The translations under genes and the position numbers were made by a program. Shown piece by piece: positions 4,052 through 50,293 of a DNA stretch of 64,000 nt (position 1 is the stretch's first letter; every line of letters starts with the position of its first letter). The notes beneath the pieces are model-generated. The model ran no database searches and had not been told where the DNA came from. It saw only the letters and a program-made list of their open reading frames with translations. Where the stretch lies: positions 1 through 64,000 of the IMG/VR virus record IMGVR_UViG_3300029267_003762; one strand, 5' to 3'. Source of the DNA: a virus.

Positions 4052-4411
4052 GGGGGTGACTTGGTTTCGACGTGGATGTCGAAGCGTCTTCTGCGTGCAG
4101 GCAGAGGCACCGGAACTGCCTTGACCAAACTGGTGCAGCGTAGTTGCCAACGACAACAACGCACTCGCCGCCGTCGCTTGATGGTGGCCGTCGACGGGCG
4201 AGGTGTCTCGCGTAGCCCTGAGGCGTCAACCACTCGAGGCTGAGCCCTACCGGTGGTCTCCTGACGGACCTGAAGAAGGGCGAGATTCATTGGGAGATGA
4301 CTGGCTGGAAAGACAGCCGAACCCCGCTGGGAGGGTAGACCAGCTACGCACGTGAACGAGGAAGCCGTGTAGCTTTCGCGGACCGCAGTTCGATTCTGCG
4401 CACCTCCACCA
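4052..4411 (+). ncRNA. ssrA: tmRNA, tag peptide (A)ANDNNALAAVA
   Basis: 5' GGGGGTGAC..GGTTTCGAC; 3' T-arm CGCAG-TTCGATT-CTGCG and CACCTCC-ACCA; G3-U wobble in the acceptor stem; tag ORF 4146-4181. Confidence 0.95.
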
Positions 4412-5281: not shown

Positions 5282-5354
5282 GAGCCTGATACTCGAAGGA
5301 ACGAGTGCACGAGTTCTTGTCGTGTTTCTGCAGGTTCGAGTCCTGCCAGGCTCG
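5282..5354 (+). tRNA. tRNA-Arg(UCU)-like, atypical anticodon loop
   Basis: Acceptor GAGCCTG/CAGGCTC; D-stem CTCG/CGAG; anticodon stem CACGA/TCGTG with loop GTTCTTG; T-arm GCAGG-TTCGAGT-CCTGC. Confidence 0.7.
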
Positions 5355-5446
5355 CTGGGTACCTGGGTCCCCCTCCGTCGACGGAGGACAGGCCCGGGGT
5401 CGGAGGGATGGGCTCCTACTCAAGCCCGTGATGATGCTGCATGCGG

Positions 5447-5512
5447 ACCTGGGTCGCTCAATGGTAGGGTACGTGGGGACACGGTATGCGGGTTCGACTC
5501 CCGTCCCATCTC
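5447..5512 (+). pseudogene. degenerate tRNA-like element
   Basis: D-arm GCTCAATGGTAGGGT and T-arm GCGGG-TTCGACT-CCCGT intact; anticodon arm reduced to CGTG-GGGA-CACG; acceptor stem poorly paired. Confidence 0.5.
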
Positions 5513-5537
5513 ATTCAACGTGTGCAGCCTCTCTCAT

Positions 5538-5616
5538 AGCGGGATAGAGGAGTCTGGTCGTCCTCGCAGGGCTCATAACTCTGAGATCGGTGGTTCGAAC
5601 CCACCTCCCGCAACCA
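5538..5616 (+). tRNA. tRNA-Met(CAU), initiator-like
   Basis: Full cloverleaf; loop CTCATAA; 1:72 mismatch; GGG in the anticodon stem; encoded CCA. Confidence 0.92.
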
Positions 5617-5617
5617 G

Positions 5618-5809
5618 ATGAAAGCTCGAGCAGTAGAGGTGGTGATCACGGTGCTGTGCTTGGTGGCCGCCGGCGCGGTCGCCTACTTCATGCTTCGGCC
5701 TGGTCCATGTGACGGCGTGAAGTGCCCCGAGGGCACCTACCCCATGGAGCAAGGCGCCGGACTGTTCACCTCGAGGTGCTCGTGCATCGGGCATCCGAAG
5801 GATCCGTAG
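5618..5809 (+). CDS. small Cys-rich membrane-anchored protein
   Basis: N-terminal hydrophobic helix, then several Cys; stop overlaps the next tRNA. Confidence 0.4.
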   Translation: MKARAVEVVITVLCLVAAGAVAYFMLRPGPCDGVKCPEGTYPMEQGAGLFTSRCSCIGHPKDP

Positions 5810-5873
5810 CTCAATTGGTGAGAGCCCCCGGCTCATAACCGGGCTGTTGGCGGTTCGAACCCGCCCGGATCTA
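5800..5873 (+). tRNA. tRNA with CAU anticodon (Ile2-like or elongator Met)
   Basis: GGATCCG/CGGATCT acceptor; GCTC/GAGC D-stem; CCCGG-CTCATAA-CCGGG; GGCGG-TTCGAAC-CCGCC. Confidence 0.9.
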
Positions 5874-5875
5874 CT

Positions 5876-30734: not shown

Positions 30735-30807
30735 CGCTCCGTGGCCAAGTGGCAAGGCACCGTCCCTAATGACGGCGGGATCGGAGGTTCGAATCCTCCC
30801 GGAGCGG
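30735..30807 (+). tRNA. tRNA-like element (Gln-like body) with 6-nt anticodon loop CCTAAT
   Basis: CGCTCCG/CGGAGCG acceptor; GCC-AAGTGGCAA-GGC; CCGTC/GACGG; GGAGG-TTCGAAT-CCTCC. Confidence 0.65.
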
Positions 30808-30870
30808 CAGGCCGAGCAGCGGGTAAGAGCGTGTACGGGAAAGCTGCTAGGACGGCACGCCAGCACTCAA

Positions 30871-30949
30871 GGACGGGTAGCTCAATCGGTAGAGCGTCGA
30901 TATGACCAATGGTCCCGCTATGATGGGGGTTCGATCCCTCCCCCGTCCG
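30871..30949 (+). tRNA. tRNA-like element lacking a canonical anticodon arm
   Basis: GGACGGG/CCCGTCC acceptor; GCTC-AATCGGTA-GAGC; GGGGG-TTCGATC-CCTCC. Confidence 0.6.
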
Positions 30950-31138
30950 CTACAGCGAAGCACGCACGGCGGCGTCCTTGGCCACCAGCAGCATCTGCAG
31001 AGCGAACGTGCGCTGGTTGCAAGCGGGCAGCTCCTCGAAGAGCTTCTTGGCGAGCTCGCCGAACGGCTTGCTCACCTTCTGGAGCTTCTCGGGCAGGTGC
31101 TCGTAGTCGAAGTACAGCATCAGTTCCGCGTCCATCAT
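30950..31138 (-). CDS. small helical-hairpin phage protein (possible Acb2/Tad1-like fold)
   Basis: F.YEHLP..LQ.VSKPF..LA......LP......AL..LL.AKDAAVRA. Confidence 0.6.
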   Translation of the reverse strand: MMDAELMLYFDYEHLPEKLQKVSKPFGELAKKLFEELPACNQRTFALQMLLVAKDAAVRASL

Positions 31139-35493: not shown

Positions 35494-37173
35494 ATGGAGT
35501 CGCTAGGAAAAAGGGCGCTGGATGTGGCCTTCAAGGAGCTTGGGGTGGCGGAGGATCCGCCGCGCTCGAACACTGGGCCGCGGATCCGTGAGTACCTCGA
35601 GCCGTGTGTGCGGGGCGACCGCAACGTGAAGCTCGGGCTCAAGGCCTCGAACTGGTGCTTCACAGGAGACACCGAGATTCTGACGGAAGAGGGGTGGATG
35701 CGTTTGGATGACGTGTCCGAAGACGTTCAGGTAGCGCAGGTACATCCAAGGTCGATGCGCATCTCCCTCACCAGGACGGTCGCGGTCATCCACAAGGCGC
35801 ACAAGGGCGCTCTGGCGGTCATGAGTCGGCGATCTCTGCGTTTGGTGTCCGACCCGGAGCATAGGTACTTCGGCAAGTGGTGGGTGAGCGCTAGGAGTGG
35901 AAGAAAGGACGTACCGGAGGTGGAGCTGCGCCCCGTAGCAGACCTGACGGGTGCAGCAACGAAGCTGGTCGTTCCGCCCAGCCGCGGTCACTTCGAGTAC
36001 GAAAGTGGGTGGAGCAGGCGTGACTTGAAGCTGTTGGGAGCGTTCTTGGCAGACGGCAGCATCGTCAACGGGAAGTTGCAGTTTCAGGTCAGCAGGGCGG
36101 ACAAGATAGCGATGTTGCACGAGCTGGAACCTGACCGAGTCTGGGAAGCTCCCATGCCGTACGGGCCTAGGTCGAAGGAGGCTCTGACCAGTTTCTTCTT
36201 CGAGATGCCGTCGGAGTTTGCGGAGGCGTTCGATAAGTACAAAGTGCTGTCCCCCCGATTCATGTGGAACCTTCACAGGGAGCAGGCTGCTCTCGTGCTC
36301 GACACATGGGCGTCCTATGACGGCAGTGCTCGAGGCGGGTCCATTCGGCTGTCGCAGGCGTCCAAGGACAGGATCGACACGGCCCAGATGCTGGCCGTAC
36401 TGGCTGGGTATTCCGGTCAGACACAGAAGCCGAAACAGCTCGGTGAGTTCGGTTCGACCATGCACTTTCTGACGTACGTCAAAGGCCCGCGTAACACGGA
36501 GATCCTCGACAAGAACGTCCGCTTGACCGAAGAGCAAGAAGTAGACTTGTACTGCGTTCAGGTCCCCAGCGGGCTGATCATCGTCCGCCCTTCTGGGTAC
36601 GGTAGGGCGCTGGTGGTAGGCAACTGCATGGCGTTCTCGAGCTGGTGCATGACCGAGGCCCTCGAGGACGGCGAGGTCCCCCCTCACGGCTACCGTGCGG
36701 GGGTCGTCGAGGCTGTGGCTGACGTGCGCAGCCCGCACGCCAAGTTCTCGGGCGTTTGGCACCCGGTCGAGACGGTAAGAAAGAAGCTCTGGACGCCGTT
36801 CGAAGGAGACCTGGCCATCTGGGACCGGTCGACCACAGATCCGAACACGTCTTGGTGGCGGCACGTGAACCGGGTCGTGAAGTACGACGCCGGTGTCGGC
36901 GAGTTCGACACCATCGGCGGCAACGAACGGGACCAGGTGCGGGTCGCCGCACACCACGTGTCCGAGATCAAGCTGCTCGGCTTCATCGCCTACCCGCAGC
37001 CCGAGGACAAGCCCGAGCCCAAGCAGATCGACGCGCTGACGCACGCCAACCTGCTCGGACTCGTGGCCCGTACCATCGACGGAATGTTGCGCGACTCGCA
37101 CACCGAGATGATGGAGTCGCACCACATGGACGACGACGACGACGACGACTACGACGACGACTACGACGACTAG
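35494..37173 (+). CDS. CHAP-domain cell-wall hydrolase interrupted by an intein
   Basis: ELGV.E.P..SN.GP.I..Y; spliced junction W|CMAFSSWC; GDL.IW...HV..V...TIGGN. Confidence 0.85.
   Translation: MESLGKRALDVAFKELGVAEDPPRSNTGPRIREYLEPCVRGDRNVKLGLKASNWCFTGDTEILTEEGWMRLDDVSEDVQVAQVHPRSMRISLTRTVAVIHKAHKGALAVMSRRSLRLVSDPEHRYFGKWWVSARSGRKDVPEVELRPVADLTGAATKLVVPPSRGHFEYESGWSRRDLKLLGAFLADGSIVNGKLQFQVSRADKIAMLHELEPDRVWEAPMPYGPRSKEALTSFFFEMPSEFAEAFDKYKVLSPRFMWNLHREQAALVLDTWASYDGSARGGSIRLSQASKDRIDTAQMLAVLAGYSGQTQKPKQLGEFGSTMHFLTYVKGPRNTEILDKNVRLTEEQEVDLYCVQVPSGLIIVRPSGYGRALVVGNCMAFSSWCMTEALEDGEVPPHGYRAGVVEAVADVRSPHAKFSGVWHPVETVRKKLWTPFEGDLAIWDRSTTDPNTSWWRHVNRVVKYDAGVGEFDTIGGNERDQVRVAAHHVSEIKLLGFIAYPQPEDKPEPKQIDALTHANLLGLVARTIDGMLRDSHTEMMESHHMDDDDDDDYDDDYDD
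35656..36624 (+). mobile_element. intein (323 aa) with LAGLIDADG-type endonuclease
   Basis: N-term CFTGDTEILT; LLGAFLADGS; LYCVQVPSG..IVR; C-term VVGN followed by extein Cys. Confidence 0.92.
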
Positions 37174-37175
37174 CC

Positions 37176-38435
37176 CTACCTCTGAGTCGCCCTCTTGATG
37201 ATGTCGCTGAACTTCCTGACGTCCGGCGACTCCATCTTCGGATCCCTGATCACTGCGGTCAGGGCGTTCTCGAGCTCGGTGATGCGCTTCGAGCGCGCCT
37301 CGTTGCTCTCCCGAAGTTGCCTGATCGTCTCGATGTTGTTGGACAGCTCTGTTGCGTTGGCGTTGAGGGACTCGTGGAGCTTCTCGATGCGCCCGTCCAT
37401 CTCTGTGACGGTCGTCTGCAACTTCGTGTTCTTCTCCTTGAGCTTGCCGATACCCCTGCGGATCCTTGAGAACGCCTGCTCAACGGACTCTTCCTCGTCG
37501 GGAAGCGCGAGCTGGGACTGCACTCTCATGAGGTGGGCCTCGAGCTCGTTGCGGATGACGTCGACGACCGGCGTGAGCCTCAAGAGGCCCGTGCCGGTAC
37601 CGCCAAGCGAGTGGTACACCTCCTCCAGTGTGCCGGCGATGCGCTCGTAGGCTTCCACGGCGCTCTCATCCGGCCTGCTCTTCCCGATGGCGTCGCCAAT
37701 GGACACCAGTTGCGACATGAGCTTGCCGCTTGCCACCTTCTGGTTCTCGAGGTCTTGCACGACTCGTGCAGCGGCCTTGTCGACGAACTCGTCCCTGTGG
37801 GCCCCCAGGGTTGCGCGCGTGCGCCTCAGCACGTCGTGGTTCCATGAGTCGGTGTTCGGGTCCACCTCGATTGGCCTCTTCGCGAGCTCGTTGGCCGCCT
37901 CCATCGGGCCCTTGAGGTACTTCTCCAGCAGCCTGAAGTTGCCGTCGAGGTGGTCGCATGGAACGATGCCGCAGTGCTTGACCAGCGTTCGGACCTCGTA
38001 GTTGAGCGCTTCGATGTGCCCGTTGAGCAGTTGCGACAGTCCGGCGGCGCTGGTGACTGGGAGCTCTTGAGGCTCCTTGCCGACGTGCTTGAGCCCGTTG
38101 GTGATCGAGATGAGCGAGTCCTCCAGGGCCCCAACGAGCTTCTCATGCGTCTCCCTGCCCGACATCTTCTTGAGCTCCTCGATCTTCTCGACGAGCTGCC
38201 TCTCGTTGGAGTTCGGTTGGAGCCCAGCTGCGACGTTGACACGCTGGATGGCGGCGGAGAGCGTCGTGTGCATGGCTTGGTAGAGCCGAACGTGGTCTTT
38301 GAGGAGGTCCACTTGCTCAACGAGCTCATCGACCCGTGCGAGCTTTGCCCGCACGTACGCCCCGGTGACATCGACTTCGATGAAGTCCTTGTCGCCTTTG
38401 AGGGCCTCGAAGCCCTCTTTCGTTTTCTCTGTCAC
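37176..38435 (-). CDS. long coiled-coil protein directly downstream of the RAMP-like gene
   Basis: Heptad pattern throughout; GGAGGAAG RBS; 11 nt from the upstream stop. Confidence 0.7.
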   Translation of the reverse strand: MTEKTKEGFEALKGDKDFIEVDVTGAYVRAKLARVDELVEQVDLLKDHVRLYQAMHTTLSAAIQRVNVAAGLQPNSNERQLVEKIEELKKMSGRETHEKLVGALEDSLISITNGLKHVGKEPQELPVTSAAGLSQLLNGHIEALNYEVRTLVKHCGIVPCDHLDGNFRLLEKYLKGPMEAANELAKRPIEVDPNTDSWNHDVLRRTRATLGAHRDEFVDKAAARVVQDLENQKVASGKLMSQLVSIGDAIGKSRPDESAVEAYERIAGTLEEVYHSLGGTGTGLLRLTPVVDVIRNELEAHLMRVQSQLALPDEEESVEQAFSRIRRGIGKLKEKNTKLQTTVTEMDGRIEKLHESLNANATELSNNIETIRQLRESNEARSKRITELENALTAVIRDPKMESPDVRKFSDIIKRATQR

Positions 38436-38446
38436 TGCTTCCTCCT

Positions 38447-39340
38447 TCAGCTGACGCGGCCAGCAGTCTGCGTGTCATTCGAGGTGATGACGTCCTTGCG
38501 GGCGACCTTGCGTGCGGCCCTGCCCCTCGCAGGTGCCTTCGTAGTCTTCTTGGCCGCCGTCTTCTTCTCCTTGGGTTCTTTGCCGGCGACGCCGTCCTGC
38601 ACCTTCTCGACGTTGACGAGGCGGAACTTGCCCTCGCCGATGGAGCGGTCGGCCCACAGCCCATTCTCCTGGGCCAGGGTGAGGATGCGGACGAGCTCCT
38701 CCTCCTTGATGTGGCGCGTGTCGGCGGGGTGCGTGGGGGCGACCCACCAGTCGAACGTGCAGTACACGTCTGTGAGGTAGTCGGTCTTCTTGATCGCGGT
38801 CCTCGGGCCCTGCATGGTCATGACCTGGATCGCCCGCTCCTCGCAGCCGTCCGGCTCGGTCACGTACATGCGGCCGGCAGTGGTGATGCGGTAGAACAGA
38901 AGCTGGTTGCCGTGGTCCAGCCCCTCGGGCTTGATCTCGGTGCCGTGCTTGAGGTGTTCGGTCTTCGGGCGGTCCTGCAGGATCCTGTGCACCGAGACCG
39001 TCTCTTTGATGCACGCCTTCGGGCAGCGGGCGAACATGTACATCTGGCCCTCGGAGTTCCTGGGAAAGCCGATCCAGGAGCGCTCCTCCTTCTCCTGCCC
39101 CTCGATGGCCTCGAGGTTCTCTTCGTCCTGCTGCTCGGTGAGCTCGTCACGCTCTTTCACCTTCGTCTTGAGCTCGGCGTAGCTCTTCTTCGGCTTCTTC
39201 GCCTGCTGGTCGCCGGCGATGACGAGGGGGTTCAGGGGGTGGCCGCCGATGATGCGGTTCGGCGCCTCGACGACGATCGTGATGCGGTAGACGTCGTAGA
39301 ACTGCTTGGGGCTGGTGTCGTACTTGTCGAGTAGGTTCAT
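38447..39340 (-). CDS. stand-alone Cas7/RAMP-like protein
   Basis: N-terminal strand YRITI...IIGGHP; F.R...G.......KACIKE helix; thumb-like EERAIQVMTMQGPRTAIKKTD; C-terminal G-rich loop GLWADRSIGEGKF; basic tail; GAAGGAG RBS. Confidence 0.75.
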   Translation of the reverse strand: MNLLDKYDTSPKQFYDVYRITIVVEAPNRIIGGHPLNPLVIAGDQQAKKPKKSYAELKTKVKERDELTEQQDEENLEAIEGQEKEERSWIGFPRNSEGQMYMFARCPKACIKETVSVHRILQDRPKTEHLKHGTEIKPEGLDHGNQLLFYRITTAGRMYVTEPDGCEERAIQVMTMQGPRTAIKKTDYLTDVYCTFDWWVAPTHPADTRHIKEEELVRILTLAQENGLWADRSIGEGKFRLVNVEKVQDGVAGKEPKEKKTAAKKTTKAPARGRAARKVARKDVITSNDTQTAGRVS

Positions 39341-39394
39341 CTTCTATCTCCTTCAGGTAGTGATTGGTTCAAGGAAGAAGTAAGGAAGCTGCTT

Positions 39395-40448
39395 GGACAG
39401 GCTAGGCCTGTCGCCAGGGTTGCCGTGACCAGGCGCGTCGATCGGCAAGGGGAGGTGTGGCAAGTCACTGGCACCGGTTCAGGCGGGTAGGTCGATTGGT
39501 TTGGTCAGAAGTGGTGAGGCATGTCGCACGGGTGGGATGGAGCGGGCACGGTTCGTCGGGCGGCAAGGTGAGGTGCGAGAAGGCACGTCGGCGGGCACGA
39601 GAAGGTCCGGCGCAGTGCGTCGACCGAGTGGGCATGACTTGGCTGATCGATAGGGACGGCCCGACCAGGCTCGTCGGACGAGAAGGAATGGCGCGGTATG
39701 TCGTACGGCATGATGTGGGCTTGGCGGGATTGGGGTGAATAGTCGACCAGTTCGGATGAATCAGGCACGTCGAAGAGTCCGGTAAGGCATGGCCCGTCGT
39801 GTGTCCTGGTCTGCCTTGGCATGTCCTGCGATGGGGCGTGCATCGGTTCGTCGCAAAGCTGGGCGTGGTTCGGTTCGTCGACCGGAGTGATTCGTTGAGG
39901 AACGGATTGTCGATCGTGTCTGGTCGGGACCGGTTTGGGCCGTCGCATGAACCTGAACTGGGAAGGCATGTCGACTGGTCCGGCGAGGTAAGGTACGTCG
40001 GATGGGCCGGATGAGTGGGGCACAGCTCGTCGCGTGAGTCGTAAGACACGAACTGGTGAGGCATGGGTTGTCGAGCGGGCCGGTACGACTTTAGCACGGA
40101 ACGTCGAATGGCCAAGCAAGGTACGGTTTGTCGCATGGGAAGGCTGGGAACGGATCGATGGTGGTCAGTCGCGTGGCGTGGTGCGGGTCGGATCGGATGG
40201 TTCAGCCCTGGCCAGTCGAAGGATCGGGAGTGGTGGGGCCTGTCGGCTGGGACGGGTCGGAAGGGTTTGGTGAGTCGCCTGGGCTGGCATGTGCGGGTCC
40301 GGAGTGTCAGACGGTTTGGCGTGGTCAGTCCCCTAGTTCGATACGGAGTGTCGGACGGGTGGACCGGGAGTGGCCCGTCGGATGGACTGGAGAGGAGTGG
40401 GCGGGTTCGGAGTGTCGGTAGGGTCGGTGCGCCGCAGCGAGGCATGTC
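39395..40448. repeat. array of 34 units GTCGNNN+(GGNNN)n with 5-nt periodicity; candidate guide-RNA array
   Basis: Unit starts at 39410, 39437, 39464, 39491, 39523, 39555, 39587, 39619 ... 40377, 40414, terminal GTC at 40446; 30 of 34 units are exactly 7+5n nt. Confidence 0.9.
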
Positions 40449-40755
40449 AAAAGGGCGGCTCCTCGTCACCGTCTACCACAGGCAGGTCCCGGAGGTAGTC
40501 ATCGAGCTCGAGGGGCCATGGTGGCAATCCGCTACCGCATCGGCCGCTGCCGTGGCGGTGCGGGAAAGGGTAAGCATCACAGCCGCAGACTCCGTACTTG
40601 TCGAACTGCACGGTCCTCATCCACTTGCAGAGAGGGCGGCCCGGTCGGCACTCCGGCATGTGCACGACCACGGTCCTGTTCACCACGTAGCACCTCCCGC
40701 CGCCTGCCTCGAGCTCGCGGGTGGTTCGCGCCCTCTTGTGAACGAGCTTACTCAT
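40447..40755 (-). CDS. small Cys/His-rich protein
   Basis: C.CDAYPFPHR.GSG.C motif; its TGA overlaps the last GTC of the array. Confidence 0.6.
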   Translation of the reverse strand: MSKLVHKRARTTRELEAGGGRCYVVNRTVVVHMPECRPGRPLCKWMRTVQFDKYGVCGCDAYPFPHRHGSGRCGSGLPPWPLELDDYLRDLPVVDGDEEPPF

Positions 40756-48387: not shown

Positions 48388-50293
48388 GGAAACTCCCGAA
48401 CGATTGATCGACCCCCACAACCCGCCCGCCAGCTTCTTCATGCCGGGCTCTCTGTCTCCTGACTTCTTGAACGAGGAGCTGTTGGATGACTTCGCCGGCG
48501 ACCCGGAACTGTCATCGCTCGACGGCGACTGGTCTGCCGAGTACGGACCTTCGATCGAGTATGAGGACCCAGGGGCCATAGCCAAGAGGATACAGGAAAA
48601 AGGCAGGGTCCAACTCTTCCCGACCGACTTCGTGCACGCCGCCTTCAAGATGCCGAAGTCAGACGGGGGTTACGAGGACTTCTCGTTCGAGGGCCGCAGG
48701 CACATCCTGAGTCCGTACAACACGCAGGCCAAGCGCGTGCTTCTGGTGTGCGCCCGTCAGACCGAGAAGTCGACGCTGCTCGGCAACTTGGCGCTCACGT
48801 ACTCGTGCCTCGTTCCGGCCTTCAAGACCTTGTACGTGTCGCCGTCGGCGATGCAGACCAAAACGTTCTCGAACGACCGCGTCAAGGAGCCGATCGAGAC
48901 GAGCCCCATCCTGCGGGCCTACACGACGCACAAGCTCAGCCAGAACATCTTCGAGAAGCAGTTCATCAACCGGTCGAAGATCACGCTTCGCTACGCGTTC
49001 CTCAACGCCGATCGTGTCCGCGGCATCCCGGCCTGGATGCTGCTGATCGACGAGATCCAGGACATCATCTCGGACAACATCCCGGTCATCGAGCACTGCC
49101 TGTCCCACGCCCCGAAAGAGTGGCGCCGGTTTGTGTACTCCGGCACCCCGAAGTCGCTCGACAACACCATCGAGTGGTACCGCGCCAACAAGTCGACTCA
49201 GGGCGAGTGGATGGTGCCGTGCGACCGCTGCGGGAGCAACGCCAAGGGGGCCGCTGGGCGCTTTTGGAACATCCTCGGCGAGAAGAACATCGGCAACAAA
49301 AGTCTGATCTGTGAGAAGTGCGGAGAGCAGCTGTACCCGATGCACGAGGACGCCCAATGGGGGCACCACGTAGCCTGGCACCCGAAGTACGCCCCGTTCG
49401 AGAGCTACCGCATCAACCAGCTCATGGTTCCGTGGAAGGACTGGGACGAGCTGCTGTACGAGTACCACAACAACCCGCGAGCGAAGTTCCTCAACGAGTC
49501 GCTCGGCATCTCCTACGACTCCGGTCTTCGGCCTCTCACGCTCGGTCAGGTCAAGAACGAGTGCAACCCGGCCATCACGATGGCGGAGAAGGAGGTCAAG
49601 AAGTACCGCCAGATCGGCCTCGTGAACCCCATCTTCATGGGCATCGACTGGGGGACCGGCGAGAACACGTATACCGTGATCACGCTCGGTACGTACGTCG
49701 ACATGAAGCTGCGGGTCTTCTATGTGCACCGCTGCACGGGCGATCTTCTCGAGCCTCCGAAGCAGCTCGCGTTCATCAAGAAGCTGGTGCAGCAGTTTCA
49801 CGTTCGGGTCATCGGCACCGACTACGGTGGCGGCTACGACCGCAACGACGACTTGATGCGGGCGTTCGGCCCCGACCGACTCGTGAAGTACCAGTACCTC
49901 CCGCGCTCTCGTCAAAAAGTCAGCTGGCAGGGCAAGCTCGGCCGGTTCATCGTGTCGCGCACCGAGGTGATGAGCGACATCTTCAACGCCATCAAGCGTC
50001 ACCAGTTCGAGTTCCCTCGATGGGAGGAGTTCCACGCCGGGGGCAACGCTCCGTACGCCGGCGACATGCTCAACATCTACAGCGAGTACGACGAGCAGCG
50101 CCACCAGATCGTCTACAAGCACGCCCCCGACAAGCCGGACGACACTTTCCACTCACTTCTGTACATGACGCTCGGTTCGATGCTCATTCGGCCAAGGCCG
50201 GACATCGTCACGCCTAGAAAAGAAGTTTCTGGCGAAGGAAGGGGGCACCCGATGTTCGATGGGGACTATGATGGGACAGTAGATCAGGATTGA
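48386..50293 (+). CDS. terL: terminase large subunit (GpA-like)
   Basis: Walker A-like ARQTEKST; RVRG....LLIDEIQD Walker B; SGTP; CxxC pair; nuclease MGIDWG and PDD.FH; start uncertain (48371 or 48386). Confidence 0.93.
   Translation: METPERLIDPHNPPASFFMPGSLSPDFLNEELLDDFAGDPELSSLDGDWSAEYGPSIEYEDPGAIAKRIQEKGRVQLFPTDFVHAAFKMPKSDGGYEDFSFEGRRHILSPYNTQAKRVLLVCARQTEKSTLLGNLALTYSCLVPAFKTLYVSPSAMQTKTFSNDRVKEPIETSPILRAYTTHKLSQNIFEKQFINRSKITLRYAFLNADRVRGIPAWMLLIDEIQDIISDNIPVIEHCLSHAPKEWRRFVYSGTPKSLDNTIEWYRANKSTQGEWMVPCDRCGSNAKGAAGRFWNILGEKNIGNKSLICEKCGEQLYPMHEDAQWGHHVAWHPKYAPFESYRINQLMVPWKDWDELLYEYHNNPRAKFLNESLGISYDSGLRPLTLGQVKNECNPAITMAEKEVKKYRQIGLVNPIFMGIDWGTGENTYTVITLGTYVDMKLRVFYVHRCTGDLLEPPKQLAFIKKLVQQFHVRVIGTDYGGGYDRNDDLMRAFGPDRLVKYQYLPRSRQKVSWQGKLGRFIVSRTEVMSDIFNAIKRHQFEFPRWEEFHAGGNAPYAGDMLNIYSEYDEQRHQIVYKHAPDKPDDTFHSLLYMTLGSMLIRPRPDIVTPRKEVSGEGRGHPMFDGDYDGTVDQD

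Follow-up and report, generated by a model that had tools for sequence, protein, structure and literature searches.

A phage-borne array of short five-base-repeat units beside a Cas7-like gene, a probable tail-less variant of VIPR-type guide-RNA arrays

The locus and the grammar of the array

The window analysed here is a stretch of 64,000 nucleotides (nt) from a virus and forms part of a 92-kb IMG/VR record; relatives of the array described below are found on viral contigs too. The array lies between two minus-strand genes, both with a coding-type G+C content at the third codon position (GC3, 0.93 and 0.79). The features of the locus are as follows.

37176 to 38435, minus strand: downstream 419-amino-acid (aa) coiled-coil protein in the same gene string (GC3 0.86)
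38447 to 39340, minus strand: Vipr-like gene P0001, 297 aa, predicted Cas7-type RAMP (AlphaFold2 model, Foldseek and VIA-align)
39341 to 39409, minus strand: 69-nt spacer from the array to the Vipr-like start codon, carrying the ribosome-binding site GAAGGAGAT (by reading of the sequence)
39410 to 40449, no strand assigned: non-coding array of 35 units (parse, shuffles and codon-position G+C)
40447 to 40755, minus strand: upstream Cys/His-rich ORF P0007, 102 aa (GC3 0.79)

In the sense of the genes, the stop codon of the 102-aa ORF abuts the first array unit, and the final delimiter variant (GTCA on the plus strand, TGAC on the minus strand) overlaps this stop codon. P0007 is a possible candidate for an accessory gene. 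Its PHROG matches are weak and of unknown function, and the Pfam and PHROG matches of the 419-aa protein are weak and of the coiled-coil type; as far as an accessory gene is concerned, neither protein has a family match. No Cas5, Cas6 or other cas genes were noticed among the ORFs examined near the array, and no neighbouring genes besides the Vipr-like gene are common to the window and the related loci L238 to L241. No sigma-70-like promoter was found around the array on either strand, and no convincing terminator at the array of the window. The phage also encodes a tmRNA (tag peptide ANDNNALAAVA, an AND-type tag reminiscent of those of proteobacteria) and several tRNA genes (4052-4411, 5282-5874 and 30735-30950), namely Arg-tct, two Met-cat, Ile-aat and Val-gac. 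An Arg-tcg tRNA at 49054-49152, on the minus strand, was called by ARAGORN alone.

The tract from 39410 to 40448 has 42.5% G and 21% C on the plus strand, and its GC skew runs from +0.26 to +0.38. On this strand a unit consists of GTCGNNN followed by three to eight GGNNN pentamers; on the minus strand, the sense of the gene, the array reads (NNNCC)n NNNCGAC. The earlier note had divided the tract by hand into units of quantised length. An independent parse by dynamic programming, in which the tokens were a delimiter of 7 nt and a pentamer of 5 nt and any 1-nt insertion carried a penalty, returned the same counts between 39410 and 40446: 35 units, of which 15 are of 27 nt, 10 of 32 nt, two of 22 nt and one each of 37, 42 and 47 nt, together with four that carry one extra base (beginning at 39909, 39942, 40070 and 40130) and a 9-nt stub at 40029. 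The last 32-nt unit of this parse includes one boundary base. All 35 units are distinct, as had been claimed. Compared with one another, the units have an identity of 0.74 in the two fixed positions of the pentamer and of 0.257, the chance level, in positions 4 and 5, where all 16 dinucleotides are present. The four delimiter bases are conserved in 34 (G), 35 (T), 35 (C) and 31 (G) of the 35 units, and the pentamer that precedes the delimiter begins with GG in 31 of 34 units, which bears out the "nearly all" of the earlier note. Among the 157 pentamers, G occupies position 1 in 91% and position 2 in 79%, and the entropies of positions 1 to 5 are 0.49, 0.99, 1.94, 2.00 and 1.92 bits. Position 3, a pyrimidine in only 64% of the pentamers, is nearly as variable as positions 4 and 5, which makes GG+NNN a better description of the repeat than a strict GGY+NN.

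Counted without any parse, there are 34 GTCG words in 1,039 nt. Sixteen of the 33 intervals between successive words are of 27 or 32 nt, 18 of the 33 equal 2 modulo 5, and GG recurs at a lag of five bases 2.38 times as often as expected. The null model consisted of 500 dinucleotide-preserving shuffles, which gave 19.4±3.4 GTCG words; 3.5±1.9 of the intervals equalled 2 modulo 5, and the ratio for GG at a lag of five was 0.99±0.16. The number of 27- or 32-nt intervals was 0.45±0.69 in the shuffles (largest value 4) against 16 observed, so the 7+5n spacing passed its shuffle control. The earlier observation is thereby confirmed: the tract is a genuine array, non-coding, in which a fixed GTCG/CGAC mark parts about 35 short units with a five-base rhythm.

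A protein-coding repeat was considered and rejected: the step is of five nucleotides, codon-position G+C is flat, and stops occur in every frame of the related arrays. The 334-aa ORF that spans the array has a codon-position G+C of 0.58/0.65/0.67, which is not coding-like, and composition accounts for the long open frame of the window only in part (10 stops against 21±3.7 expected). Neither Tandem Repeats Finder nor Rfam gave a match for the tract, and BLAST against GenBank phages found no similarity for the tract or for the 20 kb around it. A CRISPR array was likewise dismissed, as near-identical direct repeats of approximately 23-50 nt with unique spacers are absent and the units share only the 4-nt mark. 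The tract is unique in the 92-kb record, where no further array was found; two other G-skewed patches in that record resemble, by eye, ordinary coding sequence. To the left of the locus, a CGAC-dense patch at 37126-37173 is a run of GAC codons unrelated to the array, which encodes the acidic Asp/Tyr tail of a plus-strand gene at 35494-37173 (weak CHAP-domain match).

The Cas7-like protein and its linkage to arrays

VIPR, a phage relative of CRISPR, was first described in 2026 (bioRxiv 10.64898/2026.04.26.720920,.720927). According to these two preprints, the guide RNA is composed of five-base repeats, and Vipr, a minimal phage RAMP, forms a polymer along it in which each repeat is covered by one protomer; Vipr holds GGY, NN pairs with DNA, and every third target base is skipped. 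The same two sources distinguish seven VIPR types with type-dependent layouts. Experiments on VIPR deal in depth with the type II systems of SUSP1 and P. fulva, and small-RNA sequencing covers types III and V.

The product of the gene adjacent to our array, P0001, was modelled with AlphaFold2 at medium confidence (pLDDT 62.7). Foldseek matched the model to Cmr4, Csm3 and type VII Cas7 (probability 1.0, E 5e-6), and an exhaustive structural search with VIA-align placed Csm3 first (Z 12.2), the top 37 rows all being CRISPR Cas7-type RAMP subunits. On this model the protein is predicted to fold as a minimal Cas7/Csm3-type RAMP, an assignment made at the level of the fold only. It has a G-loop-like GLWADRSIGEGKF motif; a glycine-rich loop precedes its last strand, and its C-terminal tail is basic. 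Sequence searches with P0001 gave no match in Pfam, PHROG or PDB; only four homologues were found among 5.8 billion proteins, and the closest are P0002 (75% identity) and P0003 (63%). The solved Vipr was not among the Foldseek or VIA-align matches of the model, and hhalign of the P0001 family against the Vipr of SUSP1 gave a probability of 0.3, a similarity undetectable by sequence. By eye, the two have short motifs in common, PLNPL after strand 1 and a G-loop with W, D and R. A His after strand 1 and a Trp in the loop, which match by eye the published guanine contacts, are not invariant in the P0001 family; this would be compatible with a changed base specificity, on what is a tentative alignment.

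Whether gene and array occur together was examined in both directions, from the protein and from the DNA. Delimiter-punctuated pentamer arrays adjoin relatives of P0001 (23-38% identity in the fetched loci) at over 30 loci, viral and metagenomic. A scan of IMG/VR by the DNA grammar alone led to arrays in L037, L038, L088, L194, L210 and L234, and a profile of the P0001 family matches an ORF beside the arrays of L088/L241, L210, L038, L194, L234 and L037 (E 5e-64 to 4e-11). The same profile also matches an ORF in L104, where the automatic screen flagged no array. Starting from the protein, the IMG/VR scan found four loci (33-38% identity), all four with arrays adjoining the gene, and the scan of metagenome contigs found 41 loci, 22 of which carry a CC-type array under strict criteria (C-rich, CGAC-studded, with a lag-5 signal and on the strand of the gene). 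The linkage of gene and array is thus shown to be conserved in both directions of search. GTCG/G-rich arrays were also seen in three fetched stretches in which no Vipr-like gene was detected (L040:10281-10582, L067:2040-4177 and L173:418-3373); that of L040 follows a tail-tube gene, is G-rich in its sense and lies at the contig end, and L067 has arrays in both orientations. These are possibly solo arrays or contig fragments.

A sister type of array, carried by some other relatives of P0001 and also on the gene strand, has NNNTG pentamers and an 8-nt delimiter ending in CGAG (ACGACGAG, AAGCCGAG and ACTTCGAG). It was found in three loci.

L260, 985 to 1640, gene strand: TG-type array (64% GC)
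L268, 768 to 960, gene strand: TG-type array (low GC)
L280, 2497 to 2815, gene strand: TG-type array (low GC)

In CC-type and TG-type arrays alike, the last base of the delimiter matches the last fixed base of the pentamer. The automatic screen had listed L260 as an exception in orientation, which was rejected because its array is of the TG type and on the gene strand. The quantised unit length of the earlier note recurs in the relatives with family-specific offsets, 7+5n in the window and in L264 and 8+5n in L239, L241, L248, L268 and L280; in some other related arrays the quantisation is blurred. As a separate observation, the K-F-D codons of the conserved G-loop in the Vipr-like gene spell AAATTCGAC in L239 (8615-8630) and AAGTTCGAC in L241, in both cases the delimiter word of the array, which may be a coincidence.

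The composition of the tract could be read in another way, as an intercistronic leader, rich in C and of weak structure, that would control transcription or translation, for example by Rho loading, with an incidental periodicity. The tract does lie between co-oriented genes, in the gene sense it has 42.5% C and 21% G, and its fold is weak (-282 kcal/mol for 1,106 nt, against -471 for the other strand). A leader, however, leaves unexplained the five-base phase, the invariant mark, the quantised lengths and the linkage to one protein family. Moreover, C-richness is not a conserved property, because the TG-type arrays of relatives, which have the same layout, are rich in G and T on the gene strand. 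We regard this explanation as highly improbable.

Transcribed strand, unit turnover and targets

In each locus of the CC type, the GG/GTCG strand is antisense to the Vipr-like gene. Across 10 loci of the P0001 family, every one of the 18 arrays is C-rich on the gene strand, and so are the 22 metagenome cases under the strict criteria. Since the arrays begin 0-40 nt past the upstream stop codon, there is no room for a convergent promoter or terminator. In L234 (8485-8525) a perfect 12-bp GC-rich hairpin with a T-run stands just after the last of three arrays, in the sense of the gene; it is the only strong terminator found at any array border, and hairpins in the opposite sense are weak (6-bp stems with one mismatch). 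The guides of SUSP1, too, follow the sense of the gene in its GenBank locus. Against this direction, the published Vipr reads GGY on RNA, but the GG strand is here antisense to the gene, so that one of the two readings of the strand departs from the published chemistry or layout. From the arrangement of the sequence we consider that the array is probably transcribed in the sense of the gene, giving a C-anchored RNA with NNRCC repeats and a CGAC mark, rather than from the antisense GG strand. An observation apart concerns L240 (6530-6570), where a near-consensus sigma-70-type promoter (TTGACA, approximately 16-17 nt, TAATCA) occurs in the gene's sense in the interval between the upstream array and the Vipr-like gene; as it sits between the two, the gene can be transcribed without the upstream array.

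Changes in unit content could be followed in two viral contigs from one sample, L238 and L239, which are approximately 96% identical. Some 330 nt of their arrays are identical save one unit, which has been swapped whole, exactly between two CATTCGAC delimiters (L238:8855-8900 and L239:8855-8907; 43 and 51 nt). In L088 (minus strand, 2202-2352) whole units occur as exact tandem duplicates, a 33-nt unit twice and a 10+18-nt pair twice. These observations support the conclusion that the delimiters bound discrete modules and that single units are replaced like cassettes. The idea that arrays grow or shrink by single pentamers found no counterpart in them, the changes seen being the replacement of a whole unit (43 against 51 nt) and the duplication of whole units.

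The linkage of gene and array does not by itself make RNA the ligand. The five-base rhythm and the GTCG marks could be a landing pad on double- or single-stranded DNA, read by the RAMP-like or another phage protein (e.g. in silencing, replication or packaging) with no guide RNA involved, and the G-rich strand, which has four or five GG tracts per unit, could form two-tetrad quadruplexes. The spacings of 27 and 32 bp, however, leave one face of the duplex, RAMP folds bind RNA, and the published Vipr binds pentamer RNA with one protomer per repeat. Hypervariable positions and the replacement of single units are also easier to reconcile with guides that carry information than with a binding site that is fixed, and a DNA pad is in our opinion unlikely.

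Targets were searched for by the published rule of 1-nt skips and by a triplet rule, and none were found in the 92 kb of the phage, in 2.3 Mb of fetched loci or, for the longest unit, in IMG/VR. Perfect and one-mismatch matches, with skips of 0-3 nt and with or without the last two bases of the delimiter, were as frequent as in order-shuffled controls and did not cluster. Blocks of three units, with a target delimiter length of 2-9 nt, reached at best 0.79 of positions, and the triplet code gave no target signal. The IMG/VR scan with the 47-nt unit returned 22 matches, about the number expected by chance, with no co-matches by other units. Because the units are short, those of four or five repeats specifying only 8-15 bases, these tests have little statistical power. 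Co-resident phages or satellites are the likely targets.

A lack of targets for the array units would also be expected of a decoy or sponge, whose RNAs soak up the Vipr of rival phages instead of guiding the protein encoded beside them. There is a precedent in the solo guide RNAs of SUSP1 satellites, which redirect the VIPR of a rival (bioRxiv 10.64898/2026.10.15.759431). Over a wide divergence, however, the array always adjoins its own RAMP gene, which points to a cognate pair, and we judge a decoy very unlikely.

Relation to VIPR and proposed function

The core elements of VIPR come together at this viral locus, which has a RAMP gene and an array of period 5 whose positions are partly fixed and partly variable; its layout differs. 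The nearest well-studied system is the type II VIPR of Escherichia phage SUSP1, with Vipr, vap1 and four vrRNAs (bioRxiv 10.64898/2026.04.26.720920; structures in.720927), which is phage-borne like the present one; in its GenBank locus Vipr is identical to PDB 36pp, and the vipr gene and the GGYNN repeats share one strand. Both systems have a lone minimal Cas7-like RAMP next to non-coding tandem repeats of five bases, in which some positions are fixed and others hypervariable. In SUSP1 arrays flank the vipr gene, and here the array adjoins the Vipr-like gene. The differences lie in the number of repeats (9-16 GGYNN per guide in SUSP1, 3-8 per unit here, mostly 4-5), in the pseudoknot 3' tail of approximately 40-60 nt, which is replaced here by about 35 tail-less units in one tract parted by a 7-nt delimiter, in the third position (Y in SUSP1, weakly pyrimidine here), and in the GG strand, which has the gene sense in SUSP1 and is antisense here.

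Two other published descriptions bear on the array. The "staggered vrRNA arrays" of bioRxiv 10.64898/2026.04.26.720920 are described there as tail-less, the end of one guide marking the start of the next, as in our array, and the alternative NNNGG/YNNNG/NNNNG repeats given in the legend of its fig. S18 and its methods are looser in consensus than GGY/NN, again as here. That legend and those methods give no GTCG/CGAC mark, quantised lengths or strand, and the staggered class is likened to the present array by description only; according to the preprint, the class lacked confirmation by RNA sequencing. Period-5 arrays found with a genomic language model (bioRxiv 10.64898/2026.10.21.760802) have GAC/NN, CAC/NN, WGT/NN and TGH/NN repeats beside Vipr-like folds, and these examples are comparable to the CC-type and TG-type arrays that we find beside one protein family. 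Its clusters have approximately 10 repeats per array, and the part of its text considered here describes no delimiter-punctuated tracts of several units. A further parallel is the crRNA of class 1 CRISPR, with an 8-nt 5' handle and a Cas7-type filament of fixed step; in our arrays a handle of 7-8 nt (CATTCGAC in L239) would precede the guide. Unlike class 1 CRISPR, our arrays lack spacers and long identical repeats, and their step is 5 nt, not 6.

Taken together, the tract is likely a guide-RNA array of a VIPR-type system, in a tail-less variant with short units. Transcription would yield a long precursor RNA, to which the neighbouring Cas7-like protein would bind, each protomer taking up one five-base repeat; the protein would grip the two fixed bases and leave the variable bases exposed for pairing with a target. 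The four-base mark and its three trailing bases (7 nt) would close one guide and open the next, so that the array would encode approximately 35 different short guides, mostly of four or five repeats. A unit length of 7+5n would follow because the protein filament, as proposed, counts in fives. In line with the earlier suggestion of a processing or capping handle, we infer a function at the level of RNA, in which the mark may serve as a site of cutting or capping and the guides would silence rival mobile elements, as reported for VIPR.

A more specific version can be put forward tentatively, and we hold it as a possibility somewhat short of even. In it, the clade writes the VIPR code differently: a C-anchored, gene-sense RNA (NNRCC) would be cut at CGAC into about 35 mini-guides of 4-5 repeats, the Cas7-like protein would read cytosines, and many very short guides would be set against rivals, with a sister branch anchored on TG and marked by CGAG.

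On this reading the locus adds another example, with a layout of its own, to the kind of system published in 2026. It raises the questions of how such arrays are cut, how filaments of four or five protomers find a target, and whether the protein family can read repeats anchored on cytosine or on TG. The layout is dense and tail-less: dozens of very short guides would be parted by a four-base mark, and the step of the protein filament, five bases, would determine how long a unit is. The replacement of a single unit between near-identical phages suggests a turnover of guides comparable to that of CRISPR spacers.
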